DNA of 64,000 nt from Patescibacteria group bacterium (GTDB lineage Bacteria > Patescibacteriota > UBA1384 > XYA2-FULL-43-10 > 1-14-0-10-43-13), in NCBI GenBank assembly GCA_041674765.1, contig JBAYVE010000004.1, positions 26,751-90,750 of the forward strand, read 5' to 3'. The position numbers were made by a program, and so were the translations under genes. The notes under the pieces were generated by a model. It saw nothing but the letters and a program-made list of their open reading frames with translations, searched no databases and was not told the origin of the DNA. Shown here piece after piece: positions 5,545 through 58,314 of this stretch (positions within the stretch are counted from its first letter, which is position 1; each line of letters begins with the position of its first letter).

Positions 5545-6100
5545 TTTTTCCTTTTCTTCCCCTCATTTTTAAGGAGGGGCTAGGGGTGGTTTATTTATTA
5601 ATTTTCAATTTTTAATTTAAATTTTTCTAATAACTATCAACGGATCAAATCTCTTCTAGCGTGTCATCCTCGGGACCGGCGGTGTTCTCTAGAGTGGTGC
5701 CTCATTCGAGTCTGCCTTCGATTCACACTCAGGCCCTGAGCCTGTCGAATGGGAGCCTGAGGGCTCTTCCCTCAGAGTCGAAGACCGGGGACCCAATTCC
5801 TTTTTTGCGGTGTCATCCTGAGGAACCGAAGGATCTCTGAACTTGTTTCAGGTGGCATTGACTTCGCATTCGCGAGGGATTCTTCGCCTCCTCAGAATGA
5901 CAGACTAATATGGTGTATAACTGATAGATTCTTCGCCTCCGAGAACATTGGCTCAGAATGACAGTTGTTATGGTGTATGTAATCACCATATGGTGATATT
6001 GACCACTCATTAACTTTATTATATACTTGCTCATCGTTCTTGTCAAGGCTTGCTTTGGTGAGAATGTTTTAAATATCAATCGAGCTCAAATTATGCTTTC
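5545..6100. repeat. Cluster of dispersed MITE-like repeats. Modules present: gtcatcctcgggacc; cctcagagtcgaagaccgggg; ctcagaatgacag; gattcttcgcctcc
   Basis: Modules recur at 20512-20740, 27545-27684, 30047-30225, 36294-36700, 40865-41000 and 45685-45960; no convincing ORF. Confidence 0.8.
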
Positions 6101-6150
6101 AAGCCTGGTTGGAGCTAGGACCTACACAACCTAGAGCGGGAGGGAAAGGT

Positions 6151-6789
6151 ATGCCAAGAATAGAGAGTGCAATTATCATCACTGATGATATGCGTAATCT
6201 GTTGATGCATTGTTGCCGATTGAGTGGGCTGACTCAGAAAGAGCTTGCTCGGAGGGCAGGAGTGGAACAGTCATGGGCTAGCAGAGCCTTAAATGGGAGT
6301 CGGAAACGTGTCGAGAGAGCGCTTATTCAAAGTACGGTCAAGGTAGTGGCGTCTGCCCTTGAAGAAAAACAGGAGATAGATTGCGAGCAAGCAGCAGCGC
6401 ACCTAAGAAGCGCTTTCGGCGTCGGCGGCGAGCTGGTTACAAATACAGCCATGTTGTTCCGGACGATAGCCATCACCGGGCTTGTAAATTGCGGTCTCGG
6501 AATGACCGATGAGCAGGCCGTGGTATTCTGCAACCTGCCCTGTCTATTCACGCGTTTAGAAGCAGTGAAAACGATTCTGCGCGGCTTGGTTGCTATTGCC
6601 AATGCGTCAAATGGCAAGGCAGCGGAAGCTGTCGGCCAAATGATTATTGTGGGGATTGTCAATTGCGGTCTTGGGATCACGGAAGACCAGGCCAAGAAAT
6701 TCGTCTCACAACCGAATCTGGGCGAGAGAATTGACAGTGTATTGAGTGCAATGAGTGCCATCGCGGCCGCATTCGAAACTGGCAATTGA
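6151..6789 (+). CDS. HTH (XRE-like) domain protein with two CGLG repeats, paralog A
   Basis: RBS gggagggaaaggt before the ATG; LTQKELARRAGVEQSWASRAL helix-turn-helix; internal repeats GLVNCGLGMTDEQAVVF and GIVNCGLGITEDQAKKF; GC about 52% versus about 41% in flanking DNA. Confidence 0.7.
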   Translation: MPRIESAIIITDDMRNLLMHCCRLSGLTQKELARRAGVEQSWASRALNGSRKRVERALIQSTVKVVASALEEKQEIDCEQAAAHLRSAFGVGGELVTNTAMLFRTIAITGLVNCGLGMTDEQAVVFCNLPCLFTRLEAVKTILRGLVAIANASNGKAAEAVGQMIIVGIVNCGLGITEDQAKKFVSQPNLGERIDSVLSAMSAIAAAFETGN

Positions 6790-6815
6790 GAAGAAGCGAA
6801 AGGAAGGGGGCAAAT

Positions 6816-9943: not shown

Positions 9944-10124
9944 CGCTTCAAGCATCCAAGTTCCAAATTCCAAGAACCAATCAATGTCCAAATTTCAAAA
10001 GTTAAGTTCTTTTGATTTGGAATTTAGAATTTGAATGGATGCTAGAGATTGGGTGTTGGTTGTTATTCTGTTGCCAGAAGTTTCTGTTATAATGTTCTTG
10101 TTGAATTATCTCTTGGAGGTTTAT

Positions 10125-11690
10125 ATGTCGCTCGCTAATAAAGTATTGTTGATTATATTGGATGGTTGGGGATTGTCTGGGAAGAAAGAGGGTAATGCCC
10201 CTTTGCTTGCTAAGACCCCGATTTTGGATTATGTCTACTCAACTTATCCGAAGACCTCTCTGACAGCCTCTGGCCTAGAGGTCGGGCTGGGGCAGGGAGA
10301 ACCCGGCAATTCTGAAGTTGGCCATCTAAATATCGGTTCCGGCCGGGTTATTTGGGAAAATTTGCCGAAGATTGATCAAATGATCGCAAATGGTGAGCTC
10401 TACAAGAATAAAGCTTTGCTCGAGATAATCGATCATGTTAAGAAAAATAACTCAACATTAAATTTCATCGGTCTTGTTTCGGACGGGGGAGTTCATTCCC
10501 ATATTATGCATCTATCTTCAATGATTGAATTTGCAGCCAAACAGGGGATAAAAAATATTAATATTCATATGATCACTGACGGACGGGATACACCGCCTTC
10601 TATCGCGGCAAGTTATGCTGAACAGCTCGAGGCCTTCTGCCGCGGTGTTGGTGCAGGTAAAATTGTAACTCTAGTTGGCCGTTATCTCGCTATGGACCGT
10701 GACAAGAATTGGGACCGGGAGAAGCAGGCTTTTGATCTTTTTACTCAGAATATAGGTGAAAAGTATGACACGGCTAAAGAAGCAATCGATGATAATTATG
10801 CTGCCGGAAAAACGGATGAATTTATTGAAGCCAGTGTAATCGGTGAGGGAGGTAAGGTTTCTGAAAACGACGGTGTTATATTTTTCAACCACCGTAATGA
10901 CCGGATGCGTCAGCTTCTCGATCTTTTCGAGGGGGGAGAAGGAGCTGCCGTTCCAACCGGCTTAAAATTAATCACGATGACGCAGTATTTCAAAGGACAA
11001 AAATCAGAATTTATTTTGTCGTCGCAGAATCTTGAAAATACCTTATCGGAGATTGTCTCCAAAAATGGCGGTACCCAATTTCATACGGCTGAAACTGAAA
11101 AGTATGCCCATGTAACTTATTTTTTCAAAGCAGGGAAAGAAGAGCCATACCAAGGAGAGGTTGATGAGGTCGTTCCGTCCAAGAAAACAACTTATGACAA
11201 ATTACCACAAATGTCAGCTCCTGAGGTAAGAGATCAGGTGGTTGCCAGCCTTAAAGAGGGATATAATTTGGTGATCGTAAACTTTGCAAATGGAGATATG
11301 GTTGGACATACCGGTGTTCTGGAAGCGGCGGTCAAGGCTTGTGAAGAGGTTGACCGAGATCTCGGTTTGGTTTTGGAAGGGGCCGCCGAACATGATTACA
11401 GGGTATTTATTACGGCTGATCATGGCAACTGTGAAGAGATGATTGCCCTAGACGGTACTACCCCAAACAAAGAGCATACGAGCAATCCCGTCCCCTTTGT
11501 CTACTTAAATTTTGAAAATCATCCTTACCGGCCCACCTCAGTGCCTTTTTTGGAACCGGATTATCTCCAATATGCTATAGGAACTCCGGTCGGAGTGTTG
11601 GCAGATATTGCGCCTTCCATCTTAGCCAATTTAGAAATTCCTCTGCCTGGAGAGATGGGTGGTATGGATTTGAGCGTAGCTATGCTATAG
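10125..11690 (+). CDS. gpmI: 2,3-bisphosphoglycerate-independent phosphoglycerate mutase
   Basis: LIILDGWGLS, GNSEVGHLNIGSGR, ITADHGNCE; RBS ggaggt before ATG at 10125 (ORF-track start 10035 is probably too early). Confidence 0.9.
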   Translation: MSLANKVLLIILDGWGLSGKKEGNAPLLAKTPILDYVYSTYPKTSLTASGLEVGLGQGEPGNSEVGHLNIGSGRVIWENLPKIDQMIANGELYKNKALLEIIDHVKKNNSTLNFIGLVSDGGVHSHIMHLSSMIEFAAKQGIKNINIHMITDGRDTPPSIAASYAEQLEAFCRGVGAGKIVTLVGRYLAMDRDKNWDREKQAFDLFTQNIGEKYDTAKEAIDDNYAAGKTDEFIEASVIGEGGKVSENDGVIFFNHRNDRMRQLLDLFEGGEGAAVPTGLKLITMTQYFKGQKSEFILSSQNLENTLSEIVSKNGGTQFHTAETEKYAHVTYFFKAGKEEPYQGEVDEVVPSKKTTYDKLPQMSAPEVRDQVVASLKEGYNLVIVNFANGDMVGHTGVLEAAVKACEEVDRDLGLVLEGAAEHDYRVFITADHGNCEEMIALDGTTPNKEHTSNPVPFVYLNFENHPYRPTSVPFLEPDYLQYAIGTPVGVLADIAPSILANLEIPLPGEMGGMDLSVAML

Positions 11691-11803
11691 CCACATTGGT
11701 CCTGATTTGCGGCCAGTCTATTTTAGAAGTATAATGTAATAGGAATCAAACCGGGCGAGAGTTTGTCAGGTAACTAAGTATCGAAGTAATATCAAAACAA
11801 AAT

Positions 11804-12583
11804 ATGGGCGATTTAGATCTGAAAGAAAAAGAGGAAACAGAGGAGAAGGGGGATAAGAAGAAGCCGGTCAAACCGGAAAAACCTTCGGAAAAAAACGAGG
11901 TCGTTATCTCATTCAAAAAAGTTTCCAAAATATATCAGTCGACCATCGAGGCATTGGTAGATATATCCTTTGATATCAATATTGGGGAATTTATTTCTGT
12001 GGTAGGGCCTTCGGGGGCCGGCAAATCAACTTTGATCCGACTCCTGACTTGCGAAGAGAAGCCCACAAGCGGGAGTATCTTGATAGCGGGCAGGGATGTC
12101 ACGCAGCTAAAGCAGAAGGATCTACCTTACTTTCGCCGAAAGGTCGGTGTAATTTTTCAAGACTTCAAACTTTTGCCGAAGAAGACAGTTTACGAAAATG
12201 TCTCATTTGCGCTTGAGGTGTCTGACGCAACAAACGAAGAGATCAACGACCGTGTCCCGAAGATCATCGAGCTGGTCGGTTTGACAAATCGTACAAATGC
12301 CTTAACCGAGCAACTGTCTGGCGGAGAAAAGCAGCGTGTCTCGATTGCCCGTGCTTTGGTTCACAATCCCAAATTACTTATCGCTGACGAGCCGACAGGA
12401 AATCTTGACCCCGTTTCTACCTGGGAAATTATCGAATTGTTATTCAAAATAAACAAGCAGGGAACAATAGTGATTTTGACAACACATGATAAAGAGGTAG
12501 TCGATTCGTTGGAGCGCAGAGTTGTAACGATAAAGAACGGCAGGATTGTATCAGATCAGGCTAAGGGGAAATATATACTTTAG
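11804..12583 (+). CDS. ftsE: cell-division ABC ATPase FtsE (with K/E-rich N-terminal extension)
   Basis: GPSGAGKSTLIRLL, LSGGEKQRVSIARAL, ADEPTGNLDP; followed by ftsX. Confidence 0.9.
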   Translation: MGDLDLKEKEETEEKGDKKKPVKPEKPSEKNEVVISFKKVSKIYQSTIEALVDISFDINIGEFISVVGPSGAGKSTLIRLLTCEEKPTSGSILIAGRDVTQLKQKDLPYFRRKVGVIFQDFKLLPKKTVYENVSFALEVSDATNEEINDRVPKIIELVGLTNRTNALTEQLSGGEKQRVSIARALVHNPKLLIADEPTGNLDPVSTWEIIELLFKINKQGTIVILTTHDKEVVDSLERRVVTIKNGRIVSDQAKGKYIL

Positions 12584-12587
12584 TTCA

Positions 12588-12700
12588 TCAAGTGCATAAA
12601 GCTAAAAGTTCATAAAGACTAAGGTTTGTAGAGTTAAAAGTTTGGAAAGTGCATAAGAACAAGAGTTCGTAAAGACTACTTTCCGTAGAGTCAGTCAGGA
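12588..12700. repeat. Two tandem ~55-bp units carrying the gtgcataaag/gttcataaagact motif
   Basis: gtgcataaagctaaaagttcataaagactaaggtttgtagagtta / gtgcataagaacaagagttcgtaaagactactttccgtagagtca; same motif at 18440, 23055 and inside prmC at 37640-37700. Confidence 0.65.
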
Positions 12701-12759
12701 AAATTTATATCATTTATTTTATTTATTACTTTGTTAATTTATTAAACTTCAGCTAGCTT

Positions 12760-13671
12760 ATGTTTTTCGTTTCCATTCATAGAATTTTGAAGACGTCGAT
12801 CATTTCTCTTTGGCGCAATCTCTGGTTATCTCTAGCGGCAATTTTGATTATGATTTTAACCCTTTTCACAATCTCCTTTTTTGTTACCCTGCTTTTTGTT
12901 ACTAGCAGAACGACCACGTCATTGCAGAGCAAGGTAGATATTTCTGCTTTCTTCAACGATACGACTTCGAAGGATCAGATTTTTGCGATCGAGAATAATC
13001 TGCTTTCCATGCCGGAGGTGAAATCAGTAGATTACGTGTCGAAAGAGGATGCTTTAGGGCGCTGGCAGGAGCGTAACAAGGACAATGAAAAATTGAGAAA
13101 TTTAGTTTCTGCTAATTTTAATCCTTTGCCGAGGAGTCTCGAAGTCAAAACCGACAAGCCGGAAAATCTTGAGAAGGTGTATGGCTACTTGAGCTCAGCT
13201 GACTACCAGCCTTTGATAAAAGAAATCAGCTATCAGAAGAACCGGGATCTCATCAATAGGCTCATGAAAATCACTACCTTTATCAAGATTATCGGCTGGG
13301 TTCTATCATCCGTATTTATACTTGTCTCAATCTTGATAATTTATAATACAATCAGACTGACAATCTACGCGCGTCATGATGAAATTGAAATAATGAAATT
13401 GGTCGGGGCAACGGACTGGTATACTGAAGGCCCTTTCTTCGTAGAAGGTCTCATGTACGGTTTGGTTGCGTCAATCATATCGGCGGTCGCACTTTACTTC
13501 GGCTATACACTTTCGATGCCGGCGGTCCAGAATTATCTGGATATAAGTATATTAAATTCCGGTAGCTTGGGATTAAACTTCTGGTTTATTACCTTTGTTC
13601 AAATAGTATTTGGATTGGTCTTGGGTACACTTTGCTCTGTTTTGGCAGTTAAAAAACATCTGAAAAAATGA
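12760..13671 (+). CDS. ftsX: cell-division permease-like protein FtsX
   Basis: N-terminal TM segment, large extracytoplasmic loop, three C-terminal TMs; located after ftsE. Confidence 0.85.
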   Translation: MFFVSIHRILKTSIISLWRNLWLSLAAILIMILTLFTISFFVTLLFVTSRTTTSLQSKVDISAFFNDTTSKDQIFAIENNLLSMPEVKSVDYVSKEDALGRWQERNKDNEKLRNLVSANFNPLPRSLEVKTDKPENLEKVYGYLSSADYQPLIKEISYQKNRDLINRLMKITTFIKIIGWVLSSVFILVSILIIYNTIRLTIYARHDEIEIMKLVGATDWYTEGPFFVEGLMYGLVASIISAVALYFGYTLSMPAVQNYLDISILNSGSLGLNFWFITFVQIVFGLVLGTLCSVLAVKKHLKK

Positions 13672-14888
13672 AAAATATTGCGATAAAATTTGTTATGTTT
13701 CTTCTACTTTTCACCTTTGTATTTACTCCTTTTTCTGTGAAATCAGCAAGCGTTAGTGATTTGCAAAAAACAAAAAATGCTTTGCAGGAACAGTTAAAAC
13801 AGATCAGCAACCAAAAGGTACAAAATGAGAAAGATCAGCAGATGCTACAGGACCAAATCACCAGGGTAACTGATCAAATTTCGCAAACCGAAAAAGTTCT
13901 GACTCAAACGTCAAGTCAGATCGGTGATACAGAAAGTGCGATCGAGACTTTGCTGGAACAAATTAAAACGCAGCAGGGTATACTGGCGGAGACGAAGGAC
14001 CGGCTTGGAAGAGTCGTTTCCTCTTGGTATATGGAGGGTAATGATGGTCTATTGACGGCACTTTTAAGCTCGGGAAATGTCTCTGAGTTGGTGGAAAAGC
14101 AGGAATATTATGATTCATTAAAACAACAGATCGAATCAGAAATAGATCAGATAGTAACTCTTCAGGCGAATTTGGCGGCTAAGAAGTCGGAGCAGGAGAA
14201 TCAATTGCAGGCGCTAAATAGTTTAAAGGAAGATCAAGCTAGCCAACAGCAGAATTTAGAGAAAAGTAAACAATACAAGGCTTATGTTCTGGACAACAAG
14301 AAGGATGCATTGGACGATCTGAAGACACAGGAGTCGGAAACGCAAAAGAGAATTAGTCAGATTGATTCACAGATACGGGCGTTGACGGCCACTAGCCGTT
14401 GGGGAGACCAGATCGTATCAGATAACGGAGGTTTGTCCGTGCCTTTTTACGCGCAGACGGGCAATTATACTAAATTGGGAAACAGTCCATATACAGTCAA
14501 TCAATATGGGTGTTTGATTACCTCAATTGCGATGGTAGCTTCATACTATGGCAATAACGTCACTCCTACATCAATTGCCTCTAACACAGCAATTTTTGAC
14601 AGAGAAGGTTATCTATTGGTTACAACGCCGCCGGGGGTTGGAGTTAATGTCCTGCCAAGCCAGGGAATAAATTGGGACACCGTGGATGCTGAGTTGGCAG
14701 CAAAGAGGCCGGTCATAATCAGTATATTTTTGCCGACTGTCGGTGCAGTTAACCGCGACGGATCTTCCCATTTCATCGTGATCAAGGGAAAAACGGGAAA
14801 CAAATATCTGATGAACGATCCGATCGGAATAGGAAGAGGTTACAATATGTCACAGGTGCGATCGATGAAATTAATAAGATCTTATTAG
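13668..14888 (+). CDS. secreted coiled-coil protein with C-terminal C39-like (papain-fold) peptidase domain; FtsEX-associated hydrolase analogue
   Basis: Signal peptide, long Q/E-rich coiled coil, then YGCLITSIAMVASYYG (Cys) ... SHFIVIKG (His); start overlaps the ftsX stop (ATGA). Confidence 0.65.
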   Translation: MKNIAIKFVMFLLLFTFVFTPFSVKSASVSDLQKTKNALQEQLKQISNQKVQNEKDQQMLQDQITRVTDQISQTEKVLTQTSSQIGDTESAIETLLEQIKTQQGILAETKDRLGRVVSSWYMEGNDGLLTALLSSGNVSELVEKQEYYDSLKQQIESEIDQIVTLQANLAAKKSEQENQLQALNSLKEDQASQQQNLEKSKQYKAYVLDNKKDALDDLKTQESETQKRISQIDSQIRALTATSRWGDQIVSDNGGLSVPFYAQTGNYTKLGNSPYTVNQYGCLITSIAMVASYYGNNVTPTSIASNTAIFDREGYLLVTTPPGVGVNVLPSQGINWDTVDAELAAKRPVIISIFLPTVGAVNRDGSSHFIVIKGKTGNKYLMNDPIGIGRGYNMSQVRSMKLIRSY

Positions 14889-14890
14889 CG

Positions 14891-16123
14891 TTGAAATCAA
14901 CTTTAGACAATAAACTTTCAAGTAATTCATGGAAGAAGCAGACTTTATTTTTCGTCGGCCTGATAGTTTGTTTTGCCATAGTTTTCTCGGTTGGTTATTC
15001 TATCGGTGAGAACGGCCGTATAGAAAAAAACGTAATTTCTAACTTTAAAAATACAAATTCAGGGAAGCCGGACAATTTAGATTTTTCGCTTTTTTGGGAG
15101 GCGTGGAGCAAATTAAGTGAAAGATCTGTTCAAGCGCCTGATCTGCAAAAGATGCTTTATGGTTCAATTTCGGGGATGCTATCATCGATGGATGACCCTT
15201 ATACGGTATTTTTCTCTCCAGAAGATAATAAGAGGTTCAGAGAAGACATACAGGGAGAATTTGATGGTATAGGAGTGGAGCTGGTTCTGAAGAATGGTTT
15301 GCCAACCGTTGTCGCGCCTTTATCAAAAAGTCCGGCAGATCAAGCAGGAATAAAAGCCGGTGATGTTATTTTGGCGGTGGATGAAGTTGATACATCAGGT
15401 CTCGGTTTCAATGAAACTGTTGATAAGATTAGAGGACCGAAGGGTAGCAAGGTACGCTTAAGGATATTTCGAGAGGGCAGCGATCAGCCTGTCAACGTAG
15501 AAGTTACAAGAGAAACCATTTCAATCAAAAGTGTTGAATGGGAATACCGAACTGAGAAAGGCAAAAAAATAGCGATAGTCCATGTACGCCAATTCGGCGA
15601 TGATACTGACAAACTGTTTGATGATTTTGTAAGTGAAATAGTAAAGACAAAACCGGCCGGTATAATAGTTGATCTGCGCAATAATCCCGGAGGGTATTTG
15701 GAAAGCGCGATCAATCTGTCAAGCTACTTTTTGGATGGCGGCATCGTCGTAAATGAGAAAGGAAGATCAGGCGATAATAAATCATATAATGTGACGAAAA
15801 AGAATAGGCTCTCTGGTTTTAGGACGGCAGTTTTGGTCAATAATGGCTCAGCCTCAGCCTCGGAAATTTTTGCTGGAGCGCTGCAGGATCGAAAAAGCGG
15901 ACGAGTTTTTGGCGAGAAAACCTTCGGCAAGGGTAGCGTTCAGGAGATAGTACAGTTGTCCGATGGCTCTGCTTTGAAGATTACCGTTGCCAAATGGTAT
16001 ACGCCAACTGGGCGTTCGATCAATGGTGAAGGGATAACTCCGGACGTAGAGATTAAAGGTAGCGACAGTAAAGAAGAAGATAGCCAGCTCGATGCAGCGC
16101 TTGAATATGTTATCGCTGATTGA
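14891..16123 (+). CDS. ctpA: carboxyl-terminal processing protease (S41) with PDZ domain
   Basis: PDZ GIKAGDVILAVDEV, S41 core LVNNGSASASEIFAGALQD..K. Confidence 0.9.
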   Translation: MKSTLDNKLSSNSWKKQTLFFVGLIVCFAIVFSVGYSIGENGRIEKNVISNFKNTNSGKPDNLDFSLFWEAWSKLSERSVQAPDLQKMLYGSISGMLSSMDDPYTVFFSPEDNKRFREDIQGEFDGIGVELVLKNGLPTVVAPLSKSPADQAGIKAGDVILAVDEVDTSGLGFNETVDKIRGPKGSKVRLRIFREGSDQPVNVEVTRETISIKSVEWEYRTEKGKKIAIVHVRQFGDDTDKLFDDFVSEIVKTKPAGIIVDLRNNPGGYLESAINLSSYFLDGGIVVNEKGRSGDNKSYNVTKKNRLSGFRTAVLVNNGSASASEIFAGALQDRKSGRVFGEKTFGKGSVQEIVQLSDGSALKITVAKWYTPTGRSINGEGITPDVEIKGSDSKEEDSQLDAALEYVIAD

Positions 16124-16166
16124 GCTTTGAAGCGGTTTTTTGTATAATGTTTCTGGAGGGATAATA

Positions 16167-18419
16167 ATGGTTGATGACACAAACACTACTAATATTGCTG
16201 CGAGACCTGCCGGGCAGAATATTGTTACAGGCGCTACATCGAGTTCCAAGGGCTTAAGTCCGTGGGATGACGATCTTGAGCTGCCTGAAGAAAAACCTAA
16301 GATTATTGGAACATTAGAGGGCGGCACTAGTCGAGTAGCGGCGAAGCCTTTTAGCTTGCCCGAGAATATAGAATCTACATCTGGCCCGAAAGTGGTTCAG
16401 GCCACAGATTTTATTCAGCCTGCGCCTCCAGCACCTCAAATGCCCCAGGCGTTGCAGGAGCCGGCGACGGTACAAGCCAAGCCTGAGATTAGCGGGATTA
16501 GCGATGCTAATTCTTCTTCCCCTGTTCCTGCTCAAACGATACCTCAAAAAGCTACGTTGTCATCACCACAACCGGTTGCCACCAAAAAATTTGTTGAGGG
16601 CTCTGCCCCCGACCAACCGACTGTTCAGGATATACGCCCTCCTATCTCGACTGTTACAACTCCTCCTGTTATGGAGATGAAGCCTCTCGCGCCAATTCCT
16701 GAGTCATCCAAGGCGACTGAACCTGAGCGAACGAAAACGAATCTTTTCTCCAGTTTGAGGATGTTTGGAAAAAAGGAGAAAAGAGCTGTCCCTGCTGCAC
16801 AAACAATTCAAACGAATGCCAATCCGAATAAAGAACCTTTCAATCTGAAGGTTCCGCTAACTGTTTTTACTTTTATTTTGATATTCATCGCCCTAGTTGC
16901 AGCAACGGAGAAAGGGTTTATCTCTATCGGGCTTGAGAAAGTTTACGGCGCTGTCGGAATCGAGCAGCTATGGGGAGGATTATCGAAGAACACAGAGCAG
17001 GCGCTTGGTAGATCGATTCTCAGTATGGCGGATCATCCTGAATTCAAGGTCAAAGGCAGTCTGGAACTCACGATAGATAAGACCATAAAATCGGAGATTA
17101 CTACACCACTAGTCTCTGAGAAAGAGGCCAGACAAATCTGGACTATGGCTCCGTTAACGCAGGCGATTTTGGCAGTTTTTGAAACAGACGTTTACGATGA
17201 TAATTCAGTATCTGACAATTCAAGCCTGTATTCTACTGATTATAGTTTCGGCGATACGAGTGATCCAGCCGCTGACGACAGTTATTATGGGGATTATGAT
17301 AATTCAAATAGTAACAACAGCAGCTCGCCGACAAACTCCAATACCGGACTTAGTAATACAAATACCCCTGCAGCTGATCTGGAGAATCCTTACCTAAATG
17401 AGAGCGAACTTTCTCCGTATGAAAGTATTGGAACTGAGACAACATCGAAGCAGATCAATATTGGCGTACAAGCCAACTCGAGTGCAGCGGGGCATGAAGC
17501 AACGTTGAGCGTTAACCGTGCGGCTGGAAGCTCTCAGATTTCACTTAAAAACAGTGATAATACGCTTTGGGTGAAGAGTGATAATATTTTATTTAGTAAC
17601 AACGCTGATCCGAATAAATGGTTGCAGTATGACTTCGCAAAGATGCAGGGTAACAAACTGAAGGATGTAATTTTCAGTCAAACAGTCGCAAAGAGCATTG
17701 TTATTGATGGTCAGCGCGTCGGAAGCGAAAAAATTGGTCAAACACTAACTTACAAATATACTATCTCTAAACTTGAATTTGGCGATAGTTTAGAAAAAAT
17801 CGGAATATCCTCCGACGTAGTTCAAAATATTCAGGGCGATGTTTGGATTGGCGTTGCCGATAAGCTCATACGCAAAATTACCTTGAAAATTGGAGCCTCT
17901 CCTTCCTATGCCGTCTCTGCGATGATTCTCAATTTAGAATTCTCCGAGTTCGATCAGAAAAATGAGTACATTTACCCTGATGTATCTTCGGTGGTCAAGC
18001 CTGACGGGAGTTCACTTGTTTCTGAAGAGATTATTGAGACGCCATCGGCGACTGGTTCAGAATCTTCAGTCAACAGTAATTCTTCTACTGTCACTGTTGT
18101 TCCGACAAATGATGAAACAAGAATGAGCGATTTGGCCGGGATCAAGGCTGCACTGGAGAACTATAAAATAGCTAATAAAAAATATCCTATTGCGGTTGAA
18201 AACGTCCGTCTCAATACTCTGGGCAATGCCGTCGAAAAGGCACTTGTCCCTAAGTATATTTCGGCGCTTGCAAAGGATCCAAACGATAGCTCCGGATGGT
18301 ACTATGGGTATAAATCCATCAACGGGTCCAGTTTTGAATTGAGTGCAAGAATTGAAGATATTTCAGACAGTCAGGCAAAAAAAGTCGGAAATGTATATCT
18401 TTACATTCTGACGAACTGA
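16167..18419 (+). CDS. large bitopic membrane protein: Pro/Thr-rich N-terminal region, one TM, and a C-terminal pseudopilin (GspG-like) domain
   Basis: RBS ggaggg; TM VPLTVFTFILIFIALVAATEKGF; C-terminus MSDLAGIKAALENYKIANKKYPIAVENV...AKDPNDSSGWYYGY resembles the T2SS G / type IV pseudopilin globular domain, but there is no N-terminal prepilin leader. Confidence 0.55.
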   Translation: MVDDTNTTNIAARPAGQNIVTGATSSSKGLSPWDDDLELPEEKPKIIGTLEGGTSRVAAKPFSLPENIESTSGPKVVQATDFIQPAPPAPQMPQALQEPATVQAKPEISGISDANSSSPVPAQTIPQKATLSSPQPVATKKFVEGSAPDQPTVQDIRPPISTVTTPPVMEMKPLAPIPESSKATEPERTKTNLFSSLRMFGKKEKRAVPAAQTIQTNANPNKEPFNLKVPLTVFTFILIFIALVAATEKGFISIGLEKVYGAVGIEQLWGGLSKNTEQALGRSILSMADHPEFKVKGSLELTIDKTIKSEITTPLVSEKEARQIWTMAPLTQAILAVFETDVYDDNSVSDNSSLYSTDYSFGDTSDPAADDSYYGDYDNSNSNNSSSPTNSNTGLSNTNTPAADLENPYLNESELSPYESIGTETTSKQINIGVQANSSAAGHEATLSVNRAAGSSQISLKNSDNTLWVKSDNILFSNNADPNKWLQYDFAKMQGNKLKDVIFSQTVAKSIVIDGQRVGSEKIGQTLTYKYTISKLEFGDSLEKIGISSDVVQNIQGDVWIGVADKLIRKITLKIGASPSYAVSAMILNLEFSEFDQKNEYIYPDVSSVVKPDGSSLVSEEIIETPSATGSESSVNSNSSTVTVVPTNDETRMSDLAGIKAALENYKIANKKYPIAVENVRLNTLGNAVEKALVPKYISALAKDPNDSSGWYYGYKSINGSSFELSARIEDISDSQAKKVGNVYLYILTN

Positions 18420-18528
18420 TAGTACGATAAGACAGTTCATAAGGTAAAGTTTTTAAGGCAGTAAGGAGCTTCAACTGCTGGATGAATTTTCCAACTTTAT
18501 ATCTTGAAAAACTAAAAAAGGAGCAAAT

Positions 18529-19080
18529 ATGGCATTTTGGATAATCATTGCTGTTATAGCGATACTAGCCATCGCCGTAATCGGCATATACAATAATTTA
18601 GTGAAATTACGAATCAGGGCAGACGAAGCTTGGAGCGATATCAACGTTCAGATGAAGAGAAGATATGATCTGATCCCAAATTTAGTTGAAACTGTCAAAG
18701 GTTACGCCAAACATGAGAGAGAGGCTTTTGAGAATGTTACCAAGGCCAGAGCAGAAGCTCTGGGTGCCACGGGCGTCGCCGATAAATCTAAGGCCGAAAA
18801 TCAGCTGGAAGGGGCGCTCAAAACAATATTCGCGGTTGCTGAAGCTTACCCAGACCTCAAGGCAAATCAGAATTTCGCACAACTACAGACCGAACTGACA
18901 GATACGGAAGATAAAATTCAGGCATCCCGTCGCTTTTATAATAGCAATGTGCGAGAGTTGAATATCGCGATTCAATCATTTCCGACCAGCATCCTCGCTG
19001 GTATGTTCCGCTTCCAAACGAAAGAGCTCTTCGAATTGGAGGAGGCAGAGGAAAAAGAGCCGGTCAAAGTTAAGTTTTAA
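18529..19080 (+). CDS. lemA: LemA family protein
   Basis: N-terminal TM, then NNLVKLRIRADEAWSDINVQMKRRYDLIPNLVETVKGYAKHE typical of LemA. Confidence 0.85.
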   Translation: MAFWIIIAVIAILAIAVIGIYNNLVKLRIRADEAWSDINVQMKRRYDLIPNLVETVKGYAKHEREAFENVTKARAEALGATGVADKSKAENQLEGALKTIFAVAEAYPDLKANQNFAQLQTELTDTEDKIQASRRFYNSNVRELNIAIQSFPTSILAGMFRFQTKELFELEEAEEKEPVKVKF

Positions 19081-19194
19081 ATGCTAAAATTATTCTTGGA
19101 GTGTTTATATCTTGAGCGTTTAAAAAATGAAAGACGTGTCAGAATGGAACGGTTTTAATCCGTTCGGATAGAAAACAATAATAAAACTGGAGTC

Positions 19195-19560
19195 TTGATG
19201 AAGTTAAATTTCAATAAACCGAACCTTTCGATCCCAAAAATGAAATTGGTCAAACTGGACATTTCTAAGATCAATCTTAGAAAGCTGAACGGAATGACTA
19301 TTTTGGCGGTCTTGTCATACTTAAGTATACTGGTAATAATCCCGGTATTATTTGGTCGAAAGAGTTCATATATCCGATTTCATGCGAGACAAGGGATCGC
19401 ACTGCTTTTTTTGTGGGTAATTTTTAGTTTTTCTTTTTATCTGCCTTTCATTCCGTGGGTGTTGGCAGTGATAATCATCGCTTCGATAATCTACGGCATA
19501 GTCAATGCGGTGACCGGAAAAGAGAGAATATTGCCGCTGGTGGGGAAATACGCCAAGTAA
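19195..19560 (+). CDS. small membrane protein (DUF4870-like), LemA/HtpX-associated
   Basis: Two TM helices with HARQGIALLF motif; start codon uncertain. Confidence 0.5.
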   Translation: MMKLNFNKPNLSIPKMKLVKLDISKINLRKLNGMTILAVLSYLSILVIIPVLFGRKSSYIRFHARQGIALLFLWVIFSFSFYLPFIPWVLAVIIIASIIYGIVNAVTGKERILPLVGKYAK

Positions 19561-19593
19561 TTAATGCGAAAATAGAAAATAAACTATTATATT

Positions 19594-20511
19594 ATGAATC
19601 TTTGGACACAAGTAGATAGTAATAAAAGGAGGAGCGCCGCACTGGTGTTCTTCTTTGTGTTAATCGTGATTGGGCTTGGTTGGCTTTTTTCATATGTTTA
19701 TAATTCTCCGGCAATTCTTGTGATTGCTGTCATAATAGCAGTTGTTCAAGCGCTTTTGAGTTATTATTCGGGTGACGCAATCGTTTTAGCAACTTCGGGC
19801 GCTCAACAAATACAAAAAAAGGATAATCCGGAACTCTGGCGCATTGTTGAGAACCTGTCGATAACTGCAGGCTTGCCGATGCCAAAAGTCTATATTATCC
19901 CCGATGCTGCACCAAATGCTTTTGCAACCGGCAGAGACCCGAAACACGCTTCGGTGGCAGTAACAGCAGGGCTGTTGCAACGCCTGGACAAAAATGAACT
20001 CTCTGGAGTGATCGCTCATGAACTATCGCATGTCGGTAATTACGATATTCGGCTGATGACGATCGTAGCAGTATTGGTTGGAGTAATCGCGCTCGTCTCT
20101 GACATTTTTCTGCGTTCTCGTTTATTTGGCTTTGGCGGGAAGAGGGATGAAAATAGTGGAGGCGGCCAAATTCAAACAATCTTACTGATTGTTTCCATTG
20201 TCGCCGCAATATTGGCGCCGATTATTGGCATCATCGTTCAACTTGCAATTTCACGACGGCGCGAATATTTGGCTGATGCCGATGGCGCTTTGTTGACAAG
20301 ATATCCGGAAGGATTGGCGGGTGCTTTGGAAAAAATATCACAGTATAAGGCTCCGATGCGAAAAACAAGCACTGCTACTGCTCATTTATTTATCGCCAAT
20401 CCACTTGGCGCGAAAGAAAAGGGTGAGGATCAATCCGGTTTTGTAAAATTATTCTCAACTCATCCGCCGGTAAAAGAGCGTATTAAGATTTTGAGAGAAA
20501 TGTCTCTCTAA
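19594..20511 (+). CDS. htpX: zinc metalloprotease HtpX (M48)
   Basis: HELSHVGNYD HExxH motif, four TMs, conserved STHPP C-terminal motif. Confidence 0.9.
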   Translation: MNLWTQVDSNKRRSAALVFFFVLIVIGLGWLFSYVYNSPAILVIAVIIAVVQALLSYYSGDAIVLATSGAQQIQKKDNPELWRIVENLSITAGLPMPKVYIIPDAAPNAFATGRDPKHASVAVTAGLLQRLDKNELSGVIAHELSHVGNYDIRLMTIVAVLVGVIALVSDIFLRSRLFGFGGKRDENSGGGQIQTILLIVSIVAAILAPIIGIIVQLAISRRREYLADADGALLTRYPEGLAGALEKISQYKAPMRKTSTATAHLFIANPLGAKEKGEDQSGFVKLFSTHPPVKERIKILREMSL

Positions 20512-20740
20512 TTCAGCTCCAAATGTCATCCTCGGGACCAATGGTGATCTTGGAAATGGTACCCGGGGATCCAATTCCTTATTTATATTAGAGGACAGGG
20601 GGCTCTTTCTCTTCGAGTCTGAGCGACGAGGTCGCTAGGCCTCAGAGTCGAAGACCGATGCCTGAATAATTCTATAAACCCCCTCTAGCTCCCCCTTGAG
20701 AAGGGGGAGAAAATAGTGTTTTGGTAAGATTCAATTGGAT
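20512..20740. repeat. MITE-like repeat cluster. Modules present: gtcatcctcgggacc; gaggacagggggctctttctcttcgagtctgag; cctcagagtcgaagaccg; ctcccccttgagaagggggag hairpin
   Basis: Modules shared with 5545-6100, 36430-36480 and 45790-45830. Confidence 0.8.
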
Positions 20741-20741
20741 A

Positions 20742-21314
20742 CTAATTAACTTTAAACATCCCGCCGTGGCCGGGGATGATATAATCGGCAAGTTCTAAGA
20801 CTTTTTTTCTCGATTCGATAAGTTCGGGCATATCAGTTGCATACGGATCATTTTCGGGATAGTTCTCTTTCCAAAAGACATCGCCGACAACGGCTACTTT
20901 GCCGCTTGTGGTTTGGACAAGAAAAGTCAGGGCGTCACGGTTATGCCCCGGGGTTTTGACGATCTCAATATTATCAGAATATTTACCATTTTCGATATCT
21001 CTGTCTCTACCTTCCTGCCATTCGCCGAAGAATTCAACAATTCTAGTCGTCTCCGGAAACATCCCCGCATTACGATAGTGATCAATATGTGAATGGGTGA
21101 TAAAGATATGGGTGATATCTATTACTTTCAAATTTTCCCTTGCCAGGGCATCAATAAGCATCTGTTGGCTAGGAAGTTCTCCGGGATCGACAATGCCAAT
21201 AATATCACCGTCTTTTATCAGTGATATTGTAGCTGCTGTAGTTGGCTCCTTGCCTGCCAAATGGCAGTCTTTATGCAGCCACCCCTCGATCAATATTTTA
21301 ACTTCTGCTGCCAT
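20742..21314 (-). CDS. MBL-fold metallo-hydrolase
   Basis: THSHIDH (HxHxDH) and downstream His/Asp ligands. Confidence 0.8.
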   Translation of the reverse strand: MAAEVKILIEGWLHKDCHLAGKEPTTAATISLIKDGDIIGIVDPGELPSQQMLIDALARENLKVIDITHIFITHSHIDHYRNAGMFPETTRIVEFFGEWQEGRDRDIENGKYSDNIEIVKTPGHNRDALTFLVQTTSGKVAVVGDVFWKENYPENDPYATDMPELIESRKKVLELADYIIPGHGGMFKVN

Positions 21315-46524: not shown

Positions 46525-46861
46525 GGGATTTCCTCCTAATCTGGATTGTGTAGATTGCAGGGAAGTCTTTCGGGAGACGTCCCCTGAATATATACAAAAA
46601 ATCTGGCTCGGAATCCGGCCAGTTTTATTAGCGTTTCAATATTTTAGAATGACGACACTAAAAAGCTGGCCTCTTTGCGAGGAAATCTACCTTACCAACT
46701 TTTCTAATACATAAATTCATTATGGGGATATATTAGCAAAGGAGGCTTGGAAAATCAATAGTACCATCTCGGCGTTGACTATTTAGCGTTTTTAGGTTAT
46801 GAATAGTCTAACTTGTCAAGGCTGGTATCTTGGCTTGATTTTTATGACGGGGGGTCGTTTC

Positions 46862-47743
46862 ATGGCAACTTTCGTATTACCAGAGAAAACGCAAATAGCA
46901 AAAATTGTTGACCCTGCTGTTAGAGCAGACACTGTGGCACGATTTGCGCTAGAGCATATTCTGCTCGCTCAGCACATCCAAGTGCTGATCACAGAGGGGA
47001 TGGAGCTGCCGTTGGAATACAAGGAGTATCTTTTTCCGACGGTAGGCAATATCTCACTGGCGCTCGGAGAGGGCTACGCTGATAATTTCGTCAGCAAGGC
47101 ACTTCGCCGTAGCAGGATTATCAGCCCTGAGGACAAATCATACCTCAGAATGCTGACCGAAGCCCGTTACTTCCGCCACTCTGCGAAGGAAATCGAAGCC
47201 TTACTAGCGAGAATTCGGAAAGAGATCGCCAGCGGCAAGGCTAGCGGCTACAGACTGCTGAAAAAGGAGTTTGGTTTTCAGCCGGTCGAATTGGGCAATT
47301 TTTGCCGGGATTTTCTAACGCCTGAACAGTGCGAGGCACGAAACTCTTTGGCGATTCACCACAAACCGGAGAGGCCAACTGATCCCCAGATCAGTGCTCT
47401 CATCTTGGCTGACGCTAAGGCCAGGCTTCGCGAAGGAAAAGCCGTGAGTGCTAAGTCTTATGCCAGGCTTCACCATATTGGCTTAGGCAGCGTCAACAAG
47501 GGACTTCGGGGACTGAGCCGTGACGAAGCGGCTGATAGAAAACGGATTCTGAAACAGAAGACCTTTTACCCGAATTCCCCTGATCCGGAAGTCTCTCTCG
47601 GAGTAGCCATCGATAATCTTTCGAAGATTGCCGAAAGTCCGGAAGTAACGCCGGCTCGTGCTGCAGAAATTGCTGATACGGTCGAATTTTATGTGGCGCG
47701 ATTGCGAGCATTGGCGGCAGATGCCGATCATGGCCCATCTTGA
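46862..47743 (+). CDS. hypothetical protein (GC-rich island)
   Basis: About 293 aa from MATFVLPEK; putative promoter ttgact..tatgaat upstream; no motif I recognise. Confidence 0.5.
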   Translation: MATFVLPEKTQIAKIVDPAVRADTVARFALEHILLAQHIQVLITEGMELPLEYKEYLFPTVGNISLALGEGYADNFVSKALRRSRIISPEDKSYLRMLTEARYFRHSAKEIEALLARIRKEIASGKASGYRLLKKEFGFQPVELGNFCRDFLTPEQCEARNSLAIHHKPERPTDPQISALILADAKARLREGKAVSAKSYARLHHIGLGSVNKGLRGLSRDEAADRKRILKQKTFYPNSPDPEVSLGVAIDNLSKIAESPEVTPARAAEIADTVEFYVARLRALAADADHGPS

Positions 47744-54675: not shown

Positions 54676-55935
54676 TTAATGTGTTGCACAGGTGATACAG
54701 GGGTCATAAGCGCGAATGAGCATTTCAATATTTTTGTTTCTCTCTTTTACAGACAGGTCGTTTAATTTGGGAAGGAATAACGCCATATCTTTTTCCAGAG
54801 CTGGTAAGTTCTGAACCGTTGGAGTAACAAGGTCGCAACTGGTAATTCTCCCCTTATCATCAAGTTCATAATGATGAAAAAGAGTACCCCTTGGAGCTTC
54901 ACAAGCGGCAGTTCCGATACCAAATTTTTTTGGCAATTGTTGGTGTTCTTCTTTTATACTTTTTGATAGTTCTTCGAGTAATTCGACAGAATGTATGACA
55001 AAGTAATAATTTTCGATTGCTTGAGCTAATATATTGTCGAATGGATTGAGGAATGGCAGCTTTATCCCCAGTTCTTTCAAAATATCTTTTACAAAATCAT
55101 TTGGAAAAATATTTAGGTTTGTTCTAGCAGCGGCGCCAACTTGCATTATCTTGCCTTTTAGAGTTCCGAATTTTGTGCTGGTGTATTCTTTTAGCTCTTC
55201 ATCAATATAATCAGTATAATTCCCGGCTTCAAAAACTTGGCCTGTCGATGTCCATATATCTCCTTCATAGTAGGCAAATTTACCTTTTTGATGCAATGCG
55301 CTATCAATAATCTTGCGCTCTACTTCTGGATAATCGAAACTGGCAAAAAGTCTTAATGTTGATTCGGCTATTTCAATAACTGTTTGAGCGCTTCCTATTA
55401 ATTCTTTTAATTGGCTTTTTGCCGGATAAGATTTGAAACCGCCTGGGACATTGGTAATCGGGTGGACGGCTCTGCCGCCGATTACTTCGATAATTTTATC
55501 GGCGAATTTTTTGAGTTCGATCGCATTCTTGAACAGGTCGGGATGATTTTTTTGGAGTTCGAAGGATGAACTAACGCCGACATAGTCAGGCAAAACCAAA
55601 AGGTATAGATGTAGTGAATGACTCTGTATCATCTGTGCTGCGAGCATCAATTCACGCAACTTTATCGTCTGGTCCGACGGCGTTATACCGCAGGCGGCCT
55701 CAATGGCTTTTGTAGAGGTTACATTGTGTATGACCGGACAGATGCCACAAATTCTCGAAGTAATAATCGGGGCTTCCCAAAACTCTCGTCCGACTAAAAT
55801 TTTTTCGATAAAACGGTCGTTTTCGAGGCCAATAAATCTGGCCTTTTCAACTTCATTATTCCTCAGATGGGCATAAAATGCCGCATGGCCTTCAATTTTT
55901 GGTACTGCTTCCATGAAGAACTCTCCAAATTCCAA
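54676..55935 (-). CDS. hydA: [NiFe]-hydrogenase large (alpha) subunit, group 3b-like
   Basis: N-terminal RICGICPVIH and C-terminal DPCITCATH Ni-Fe ligating Cys pairs; about 419 aa. Confidence 0.85.
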   Translation of the reverse strand: MEFGEFFMEAVPKIEGHAAFYAHLRNNEVEKARFIGLENDRFIEKILVGREFWEAPIITSRICGICPVIHNVTSTKAIEAACGITPSDQTIKLRELMLAAQMIQSHSLHLYLLVLPDYVGVSSSFELQKNHPDLFKNAIELKKFADKIIEVIGGRAVHPITNVPGGFKSYPAKSQLKELIGSAQTVIEIAESTLRLFASFDYPEVERKIIDSALHQKGKFAYYEGDIWTSTGQVFEAGNYTDYIDEELKEYTSTKFGTLKGKIMQVGAAARTNLNIFPNDFVKDILKELGIKLPFLNPFDNILAQAIENYYFVIHSVELLEELSKSIKEEHQQLPKKFGIGTAACEAPRGTLFHHYELDDKGRITSCDLVTPTVQNLPALEKDMALFLPKLNDLSVKERNKNIEMLIRAYDPCITCATH

Positions 55936-57513: not shown

Positions 57514-58314
57514 TTATTTATTTAACTCTGGCTGAATATGATCCCACCGGAAAACCGGTCCGTCCTTACAGACTAAGTGTTTTCCGCAGTTGCAATGCTG
57601 ACAAACGCCGATTCCGCACTCCATCCGTCTCTCCATCGAAACGTAGATTTGGTCATCCAAAACACCACGTTTGTTTAACTCGCTGATCACGTATTGGTAC
57701 ATAATCTCCGGTCCGCAGATAAAAACCAGCGCTTTCTTTGCATTAAATTCTAGCGTCCTGATCGGCTCAGTAATCAAACCCTTTTTGCCGAAAAAATGTC
57801 TATCTGATCTCTCGGCATAGGCTTCAACATCAATTAAATCTTGGAGTTTCTCAATTTCATCGTAAAAGACAAAATGGTGTGATGTCTTGGCGCCGGCGAT
57901 AAGATGGATCTTCTTGTTCTTTGATCTTTTAATCGTAAGATCATGGAGAAGCGACCGGATTGGAACCATGCCCATTCCTCCGCCGACAAGAATCAGCTCT
58001 CTATTTTTAATCTGATCTATTGGCCAGCCGTTGCCGTATGGGCCTCTTATTTTCAAGCTATCGCCCACTAGCAGATTTGAAATCGCAGCAGATCTGTTGC
58101 CGTTAGCTCTGATGCAGAGTTCGAAAAAATCAATATTCTTATGGTGAGAGCAGGGAGCGAGAGTTATGGTTCCGAAGTGATCCAGGGCGGCTTCTATAAA
58201 TTGGCCGGGTTTGAAATCTAGATGCCCTTCAAGCCGGAATAAAAAAGATTCGGGAGCTATCTCTTCTTTATCGAGTATCCTATATTCTTTGTATGATAAA
58301 TTAAGCATTGGCAT
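57514..58314 (-). CDS. hydG: hydrogenase gamma subunit (FAD/NAD(P)-binding oxidoreductase with C-terminal 2Fe-2S Cys cluster)
   Basis: FNR-like fold, CGIGVCQHCNCG. Confidence 0.8.
   Translation of the reverse strand: MPMLNLSYKEYRILDKEEIAPESFLFRLEGHLDFKPGQFIEAALDHFGTITLAPCSHHKNIDFFELCIRANGNRSAAISNLLVGDSLKIRGPYGNGWPIDQIKNRELILVGGGMGMVPIRSLLHDLTIKRSKNKKIHLIAGAKTSHHFVFYDEIEKLQDLIDVEAYAERSDRHFFGKKGLITEPIRTLEFNAKKALVFICGPEIMYQYVISELNKRGVLDDQIYVSMERRMECGIGVCQHCNCGKHLVCKDGPVFRWDHIQPELNK

Follow-up and report, generated by a model that had tools for sequence, protein, structure and literature searches.

A pilin-type head without a prepilin leader at the end of a membrane-anchored protein of Patescibacteria

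To our knowledge, type IV pilin folds occur almost exclusively as subunits of filaments, and they are defined by a class III leader and a polymerisation helix. What, then, is the role of such a fold at the end of a 750-amino-acid (aa) protein which seems to have neither? The question is raised by a stretch of 64,000 nucleotides from a Patescibacteria group bacterium (assembly GCA_041674765.1, contig JBAYVE010000004.1, positions 26,751 to 90,750), hereafter called the window. An earlier note, made from the sequence alone, had placed the gene at 16167-18419 and had read its product as a protein with a pseudopilin-like C-terminus. The list of open reading frames (ORFs) gives an open frame at 16140..18419 on the forward strand; the start at 16167 is preceded by a GGAGG sequence, and the translated product is identical to the NCBI entry MFA7253655.1 ('MAG: hypothetical protein WC107_03795 [Patescibacteria group bacterium]'). 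Since the first search found 13 full-length homologues (35-55% identical and all without a Pfam label), and since the matches at E-values of 1e-30 or lower amount to 138 clusters at 50% identity, this is a real gene and not a chance ORF. A phmmer search of the full protein against PDB sequences returned noise only (synaptotagmin, E 0.31).

On sequence comparison, residues 647-750 qualify as a genuine, divergent pilin head of the T2SSG type, the 750-aa protein as such not being a GspG equivalog. In the protein itself, the head is matched by Pfam T2SSG (PF08334) at an E-value of 0.022 (15.3 bits, below the 21-bit cut-off) and by the GspG model TIGR01710 at 0.037 (14.1 bits against a cut-off of 88.85, residues ~650-717). 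T2SSG is also found in 11 of 14 close relatives (best E 3.9e-5) and in 13 of 15 distant ones (best E 2.3e-7), which makes 24 of 29 in total, and the relative P0137 bears a precomputed PF08334 label. A profile of the head (A2) was built from 10 sequences with a mean column identity of 62%. Its best eight matches among PDB sequences are all GspG/EpsG/PulG (E 0.0016-0.12); the alignments stop at position 78 of 105, and the C-terminal part that does not align is where we take the Ca-binding loop of GspG to lie. Against 5.8e9 sequences, the same profile finds canonical pilins of Patescibacteria with an N_methyl (PF07963) or T2SSG domain, at E-values of 1e-7 to 4e-4; the search of annotated proteins was word-indexed and returned 5 matches. 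Comparison with two canonical Patescibacteria pilins by hhalign gives probabilities of 97.9% (E 4e-13) and 97.8%, and the alignment opens at 'RDA(R/K)RK.DL', the first residues past the hydrophobic α1N helix of those pilins. In the structural model described below, the domain is a globular α/β head in which α1C (residues 648-670) packs on an antiparallel β-sheet. The results from the PDB profile, the database profile, hhalign and Pfam agree in one register. They uphold the GspG/pseudopilin-like domain of the earlier note; a C-terminal domain with no pilin-fold prediction, the outcome that the note had named as speaking against it, was looked for and not found.

The closest sequence relatives of residues 647-750 are type IV pilins and GspG-like pseudopilins of Patescibacteria, such as P0162 and P0163, of which P0163 is annotated as 'type II secretion system protein GspG [Candidatus Roizmanbacteria]'. 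The head shares with them, in one register, RDA(R/K)RK.DL..I..AL..Y....G.YP, Y...(L/I)P.DP, an aromatic-rich strand and LE(N/D)..D. Pilins of this type are 136-170 aa long and have a class III leader (KGFTLIEL…) and an α1N helix continuous with α1C, whereas in the 750-aa protein the head is preceded by 646 unrelated residues (tail, transmembrane (TM) helix, barrel and linker). Leader and α1N also distinguish GspG, EpsG and PulG (PDB 4lw9, 3gn9, 3fu1 and 5wda) from the protein studied here. Unlike the GspG of a type II secretion system (T2SS), the latter belongs to a monoderm-type Patescibacterium, with no T2SS genes among the window ORFs scanned.

The class III leader and α1N are needed for the assembly of type IV filaments. 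The prepilin motif G[FMYWL][TS][LIVM]xE is found neither in the 750-aa protein nor in any frame of the window, and it is missing from the first 60 residues of 161 relatives, which bears out the remark of the earlier note that a class III signal peptide is absent. The helix α1C follows a disordered Ser/Thr linker (residues 615-646) and not a contiguous hydrophobic α1N; the sole hydrophobic helix starts at residue 229, ~400 residues before the head, with two disordered segments in between. We also considered whether the protein might be cut internally, at a prepilin-like site close to the TM helix, and rejected this: the invariant Thr-Glu pair stands where the helix ends on the outside and not at position +5 of a Gly-Phe. 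Because the leader, Glu5 and α1N are all missing, processing by a prepilin peptidase and polymerisation through α1N are both impossible. Pilus-assembly genes are absent from the 27 window ORFs scanned against Pfam (64 kb), and PilB/GspE, PilC/GspF and PilD are absent from the ~20-kb flanks of 25 related loci. The head is very probably a pilin domain that was exapted as a tethered, monomeric ectodomain outside any filament.

The protein is one of a family. A profile search of 1.84 billion cluster representatives gave 4859 matches at E-values up to 1e-3, 672 up to 1e-10 and 138 up to 1e-30, so that the family comprises at least 138 clusters at 50% identity. The top-ranked matches are mostly (~110) proteins of 550-950 aa, aligned over most of the profile, with a fixed plan: an SPWDEELP-type motif, a variable Pro-rich tail, the TM helix, a juxtamembrane motif, a β domain, a Ser/Thr linker and the head. 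This plan recurs, with shorter tails, in a distant subfamily whose members are 430-530 aa long and at 20-39% identity. The genomes representing species in GTDB which contain the gene are labelled Berkelbacteria, Saccharibacteria (third-party metagenome-assembled genomes) and unclassified Patescibacteria. All named members are annotated as 'hypothetical', and neither Pfam nor NCBIfam has a model at the level of the family.

Concerning the N-terminal region, the long disordered stretch rich in Pro, Thr, Ala and Gln and the single TM helix described in the earlier note are both present. Across the family the tail varies from 19 to 418 aa, with 15.5% Pro and no Cys. It carries a short linear motif in which S31, P32, W33 and P40 are invariant in the family alignment; the pattern [STA]PW[DENQ] is found in 93 of 119 N-terminal tails, and other Trp motifs (ETWKTP, KPWDVP) are kept in some members of the distant subfamily. 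Exactly one TM-like segment is seen in 119 of 120 relatives. Lys and Arg are in surplus on its N-terminal flank in 112 of 119 relatives (mean excess 2.5), and by the positive-inside rule an N-in/C-out orientation is therefore predicted. Directly after the helix lies the juxtamembrane motif, whose invariant columns are T247, E248, G250, G255, E257, Y260, G261, E266, W269, G270 and G271, and which the distant subfamily keeps in a diverged form. The protein would be inserted by the general Sec/YidC route and not by the prepilin pathway. A reading as an anti-sigma factor (cytoplasmic domain, TM helix and sensor) was also considered; it is unsupported, the tail being disordered, with a short motif and no folded anti-sigma domain.

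Concerning the middle region, a full-length AlphaFold2 (AF2) model was built from 14 sequences; its overall confidence is low owing to the disordered parts. The confident regions, with a predicted local distance difference test (pLDDT) of ~85-92, are residues 270-310 and 425-610, which hold 11 strands and short helices; the β-rich segments 293-304 and 427-593 have a pLDDT of ~85-90. When this domain is compared with the PDB by Foldseek, LprG of M. tuberculosis fills the top seven matches (E 4e-7 to 7e-5, probability 1.0), the best of which is 3mh9 (E 4e-7, target-normalised TM score 0.51, 181 columns). These are followed by LolA3 of P. gingivalis (9tp6), LppX (2byo), a DUF1329 protein and, more weakly, MucB. 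Based on the model alone, the domain is an open 11-stranded antiparallel half β-barrel with lid helices. The middle region would thus form a single half-barrel like those of LolA, LprG and LppX, the likeness lying at the level of the fold, in place of the several β-rich middle domains of the earlier note. The low-complexity stretch rich in Ser, Asn, Asp and Tyr, which the note had listed as a region of its own, is present at ~340-420 and disordered; it is, however, a loop inside the one domain, because two homologues (P0012 and P0014) do without it and because the insert between β1 and β2 varies from 5 to 454 aa (median 80) among 120 relatives.

At the sequence level the picture is different. 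A profile of 26 middle-domain sequences finds nothing among PDB sequences at E-values up to 10, Pfam scans of 55 members (26 + 14 + 15) give no consistent family for this domain, and no sequence profile ties it to families of the LolA superfamily (e.g. PF03548, PF07161, DUF2092 and DUF4367). One DUF2092 match (E 0.019) in a single distant member was too weak and was not used; DUF2092 belongs, as we take it, to the LolA clan, which is a hint only. The structures of LprG, LppX and LolA (3mh9, 3mha, 4zra, 2byo and 9tp6) share the predicted 11-stranded open half-barrel and short helices with the model (probability 1.0, E 4e-7 to 1e-4), whereas the identity in the Foldseek alignments is 8-16% and a relation at profile level is lacking. 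Also, in contrast to soluble LolA or to LprG, LppX and LolB, which are anchored through a lipobox, the barrel here is held by a TM helix within a larger protein and takes an insertion of 5-454 aa after β1. A lipobox is impossible because the 750-aa protein contains no Cys; its anchor is the TM helix at residues 229-247.

Not all parts of this plan are equally constant. The protein P0169 (394 aa) occupies the same slot, between ctpA-rplI and lemA, and has the tail, TM helix, linker and head without the barrel, and P0166 (815 aa) ends in two tandem pilin heads (residues 591-692 and 711-812). These two sequences show the tail, TM helix and head to be the invariant core and the barrel an accessory. 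Many simpler proteins also end in a leaderless head, which follows a Pro-rich tail, a TM helix and a Ser/Thr linker; the tethered pilin head is therefore a broader theme in Patescibacteria. In the window, the barrel and the head each occur only once. As a separate observation, P0147 (755 aa) consists of six tandem units resembling pilin heads, ~125 aa each, arranged as an array in one polypeptide; each unit has a short hydrophobic 'FGTLFALD' in front and a Cys-containing 'GVGYQGTG…PPDCPF' at its end.

The genes around the 750-aa protein gene are listed in Table 1; for those upstream, the Pfam assignments agree with the earlier note, which had placed the gene after an envelope cluster of FtsEX, a peptidase and CtpA. 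In 21 loci (L001-L021), lemA is directly downstream in all, and ctpA directly upstream in all 19 with enough upstream sequence; every locus which extends far enough has ftsE, ftsX and the hydrolase gene before ctpA. Four loci of the distant subfamily have the order ftsE, ftsX, hydrolase, ctpA, rplI and the gene, followed by lemA-htpX-ligA in the two that extend downstream (L022 and L024). In L024, an M23 peptidase (5639-6796) is found in the hydrolase slot, replacing the C39-like protein. The slot of the gene is fixed in all 25 loci examined, including the subfamily at 20-39% identity. Based on the identity of the best high-scoring segment pairs, divergence within the block is highest in the 750-aa protein (27-39%) and in the C39-like hydrolase (33-45%); the small TM protein shows 31-57% and the other block genes 43-92%. 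Gene order is kept over more than 20 kb (window ~10000-36000 compared with L022 and L024): pgm, ftsEX, hydrolase, ctpA, the 750-aa protein gene, lemA, htpX, ligA, gatC/A, a peptidyl-prolyl isomerase gene, gatB and htrA. Macro-synteny of this kind is unusual for genomes whose orthologues of the 750-aa protein share only 20-39% identity.

What, based on these features, would the protein do? We propose a single-pass, N-in/C-out, signal-anchored envelope protein, made of the tail, the TM helix, the barrel, a linker of ~32 residues and the distal head. The barrel would serve as a membrane-proximal pedestal, possibly also as a module for a hydrophobic ligand or a regulator; the flexible linker would allow the conserved head to extend into the wall or across it; the head would bind a conserved self component, which may be the cell wall or a wall-remodelling enzyme; and the tail motif would recruit an intracellular partner. 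On this view, the 750-aa protein would serve as a tether or regulator that spans the envelope, with a plausible tie to the constantly flanking FtsEX-hydrolase-CtpA and LemA-HtpX genes. The structural part of this explanation is highly probable. A function linked to the wall or to division is put forward tentatively, and the explanation as a whole, structure and function jointly, we would call an even bet. A more specific version, which we regard as rather doubtful, is a phylum-specific, single-copy trans-envelope organiser that couples an intracellular partner, possibly the divisome, to FtsEX-hydrolase/CtpA through the SPWDEELP motif and the ectodomain, in the manner of MapZ or of an adaptor of CtpA or an amidase but made of wholly different parts, with the exapted pilin head as a non-polymerising module for binding the wall or an enzyme and with an optional lipid-binding pedestal.

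The layout has a counterpart in MapZ/LocZ of Streptococcus pneumoniae. In the MapZ ectodomain, a membrane-proximal pedestal subdomain is followed by a flexible Ser-rich linker and then by a conserved distal subdomain, which carries the function (PMC4931243), and the protein has a single TM segment and an N-terminal cytoplasmic domain (PMC7055233). Both proteins would be bitopic and N-in, with a disordered cytoplasmic part, a pedestal, a Ser linker and a distal subdomain. This is an analogy of architecture only: the two have no relation in sequence or fold, the subdomains of MapZ being neither LolA-like nor pilin-like, and it is only the neighbouring ftsEX that may suggest a division role for the 750-aa protein. 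Other parallels are GerS, a LolA-like protein which activates the amidase CwlD (bioRxiv 10.1101/2025.01.13.632879), and LbcA, the partner which CtpA of P. aeruginosa needs in order to degrade wall hydrolases (PMC8764530, PMC11021448). Like these, the 750-aa protein would be a non-enzymatic, envelope-anchored protein near a hydrolase/CtpA system, and GerS shares the LolA-like fold without sequence similarity. In contrast, GerS and LbcA are lipoproteins, LbcA being spiral-shaped (PMC8764530), and both lack the pilin head, TM anchor and cytoplasmic tail of the 750-aa protein.

Several points weigh against the proposed tether. On the structural side, the assignment of the barrel to LolA/LprG comes from one Foldseek search of one AF2 model at a target-normalised TM score of ~0.5, with no support at sequence level, and a Foldseek search with the isolated head is not significant (best E 0.35), with PilE, PilW and PilA1 among the top-ranked matches. 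On the functional side, which is the half that we infer, the adjacency of the genes is weak evidence of functional coupling because the collinearity spans more than 20 kb of housekeeping genes; synteny was at first taken as strong functional evidence and has been downgraded, since the collinear block may reflect lineage-wide macro-synteny and not an operon. In the distant subfamily, rplI stands between ctpA and the gene. The gene may also have its own promoter: a TTGAGC-17-TATAAT site overlapping the end of ctpA is one of three sites that match the consensus at 10 of 12 positions, the top score within 11600-20800. Lastly, the high divergence of the 750-aa protein and of the C39-like hydrolase is also compatible with diversifying pressure on a surface protein.

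A first alternative is a host-attachment adhesin, in which the pilin head, the variable loop or both would bind the surface of the host cell that the epibiont lives on; the earlier note had likewise suggested a cell-surface or attachment protein. The extracytoplasmic topology of the ectodomain, a loop that is hypervariable in length (5-454 aa) and the position of the protein among the most divergent in the syntenic block are all consistent with it. Two reports point the same way: type IV pili and pilins mediate host interaction in Saccharibacteria (PMC11623550), and in a cultivated Patescibacterium some envelope proteins that carry binding domains are reported to be essential (PMC10633639). 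Nevertheless, the head is the best-conserved part of the protein, with a mean column identity of 62% compared with 52% for the barrel and 38% for the whole, and gives no sign of diversifying, while the variable loop is of low complexity and disordered, with no folded binding domain. The gene is present once in the window, and even between deeply diverged lineages it stays at the same place among housekeeping genes, whereas adhesins tend more to occur in several copies and to vary. A passive adhesin would also have no need of the cytoplasmic motif conserved in 93 of 119 tails. We thus consider an adhesin unlikely, and the attachment part of the note's suggestion is left with no positive evidence, the conserved head, the fixed single-copy slot and the tail motif speaking against it. 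In the Cell 2023 transposon-sequencing paper on Patescibacteria, FtsX, CtpA and LemA are not mentioned, nor is any comparable protein.

The barrel could also act as a tethered carrier of lipids or lipoproteins, which would bind acyl chains and shuttle lipids, for example those scavenged from a host, between the surface and the membrane while the head docks. Lipid biosynthesis is for the most part missing in Patescibacteria, which have to obtain their lipids from outside, and the best structural matches bind lipids or glycolipids (LprG with phosphatidylinositol mannoside or triacylglyceride, LppX and LolA3). Such a carrier is decidedly improbable, however: the positional orthologue P0169 dispenses with the barrel, no sequence relation to the LolA and LprG families is seen, the most conserved motif of the family sits in helices predicted to plug the barrel, and proteins with the LolA fold, such as GerS, can also be pure protein regulators.

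Much less credible is an atypical but genuine subunit of a pilus or pseudopilus, where the protein or a proteolytic fragment of it (e.g. one made by CtpA) would join or cap a type IV filament. The head is homologous to real pilins and a C-terminal processing protease is encoded next door; however, the protein has no G-1/F+1/E+5 motif and no α1N contiguous with α1C, the gap of ~400 residues between the TM helix and the head includes two disordered segments, proteases of this class trim from the C-terminus and would destroy the head instead of releasing it, and the window ORFs scanned include no pilus-assembly genes. That the resemblance to pilins is convergent or spurious, the C-terminal domain being an unrelated small α/β domain, would agree with the sub-threshold Pfam and TIGRFAM scores of the 750-aa protein on its own and with the non-significant Foldseek E-values of the isolated domain, and is nonetheless very improbable in view of the eight GspG-type matches at the top of the PDB profile search, the N_methyl pilins matched at 1e-7, the hhalign values of ~98% and the T2SSG matches in 24 of 29 relatives.

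Table 1. Coordinates, in the window, of the 750-aa protein gene, of the parts of its product and of the neighbouring genes.
Feature	Residues	Position	Strand	Evidence
ftsE		11804-12583	+	Pfam
ftsX		12760-13671	+	Pfam
Coiled coil + Peptidase_C39_2, putative wall hydrolase		13668-14888	+	Pfam
ctpA, S41/PDZ protease		14891-16123	+	Pfam
Promoter-like TTGAGC-17 nt-TATAAT, overlapping the end of ctpA		16120..16148	+	Consensus match only
Shine-Dalgarno GGAGG, 7 nt 5' of ATG 16167		16155..16159	+	Sequence reading
Coding sequence of the 750-aa bitopic protein, stop included		16167..18419	+	ORF, ribosome-binding site, NCBI identity
Disordered tail rich in Pro/Ala/Ser/Thr/Gln, probably cytoplasmic	1-226	16167..16844	+	pLDDT <50 (AF2)
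Short linear motif SPWDDDLELP (family consensus SPWDEELP)	31-40	16257..16286	+	Alignment
Single TM helix, signal anchor	229-247	16851..16907	+	Kyte-Doolittle 2.51; helix 228-248 in AF2 model
Juxtamembrane motif TE.G..S.GLEK.YG..G.E.LWGG; short helices entering the barrel	247-272	16905..16982	+	Alignment
LolA/LprG-like domain, first part (three short helices + strand β1), predicted	250-318	16914..17120	+	pLDDT 85-92 at 271-300; Foldseek
Hypervariable disordered loop inserted after β1, core ~340-420 S/N/D/Y-rich	319-424	17121..17438	+	pLDDT <50
LolA/LprG/LppX-like half β-barrel, main body (strands β2-β11 + two helices), predicted	425-612	17439..18002	+	AF2, Foldseek
Ser/Thr-rich flexible linker	613-646	18003..18104	+	Composition; pLDDT <50 for 615-646
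Pilin/GspG-type globular head (α1C + 4-5-stranded sheet), without leader or α1N	647-750	18105..18416	+
lemA		18529-19080	+	Pfam
Small TM protein		19195-19560	+
htpX, M48 protease		19594-20511	+	Pfam

Some further observations concern the other genes of the window. The C39_2 protein encoded after ftsEX is 406 aa long, with a long coiled coil and a C-terminal papain-like domain, which is an unusual catalytic module; the arrangement of ftsEX with a coiled-coil hydrolase resembles FtsEX-PcsB/CwlO/EnvC. The small protein at 19195-19560 has two to three TM segments, and MamF_MmsF (PF09685) is found in its homologues, faintly in one of two; its gene, between lemA and htpX, is conserved in the close lineage and missing from L022 and L024. 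The phosphoglycerate mutase ORF (10035-11690, + strand) begins ~30 codons before the likely start (…MSLANKVLLIILDGWG…), and the ORF call thus carries a spurious hydrophobic N-terminal extension. Further away, the window contains a [NiFe]-hydrogenase large-subunit-like ORF (54676-55935, - strand; NiFeSe_Hases, E 7e-41), a 4Fe-4S dicluster protein (58301-59278, - strand) and a 314-aa ORF with no Pfam match at E-values up to 1e-5 (46799-47743, + strand).

The folds described here are known; it is the architecture that appears to be undescribed, with a pilin head that lacks a leader, sits on an ordinary membrane anchor, mostly behind a LolA-like barrel, and is conserved and single-copy in a lineage of Patescibacteria, and literature searches found nothing equivalent. 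It indicates that a pilin head can evolve into a stand-alone ectodomain. In practice, 'T2SSG/pilin-like' matches in Patescibacteria genomes should be checked for a leader before they are counted as pilus components. The 750-aa protein is also put forward as a candidate for a role in the envelope or in division. The envelope biology of this phylum is little known, and the canonical regulators are apparently absent from it. Should the link to FtsEX and CtpA hold, it would offer an entry point to the control of wall hydrolysis in ultra-small cells.

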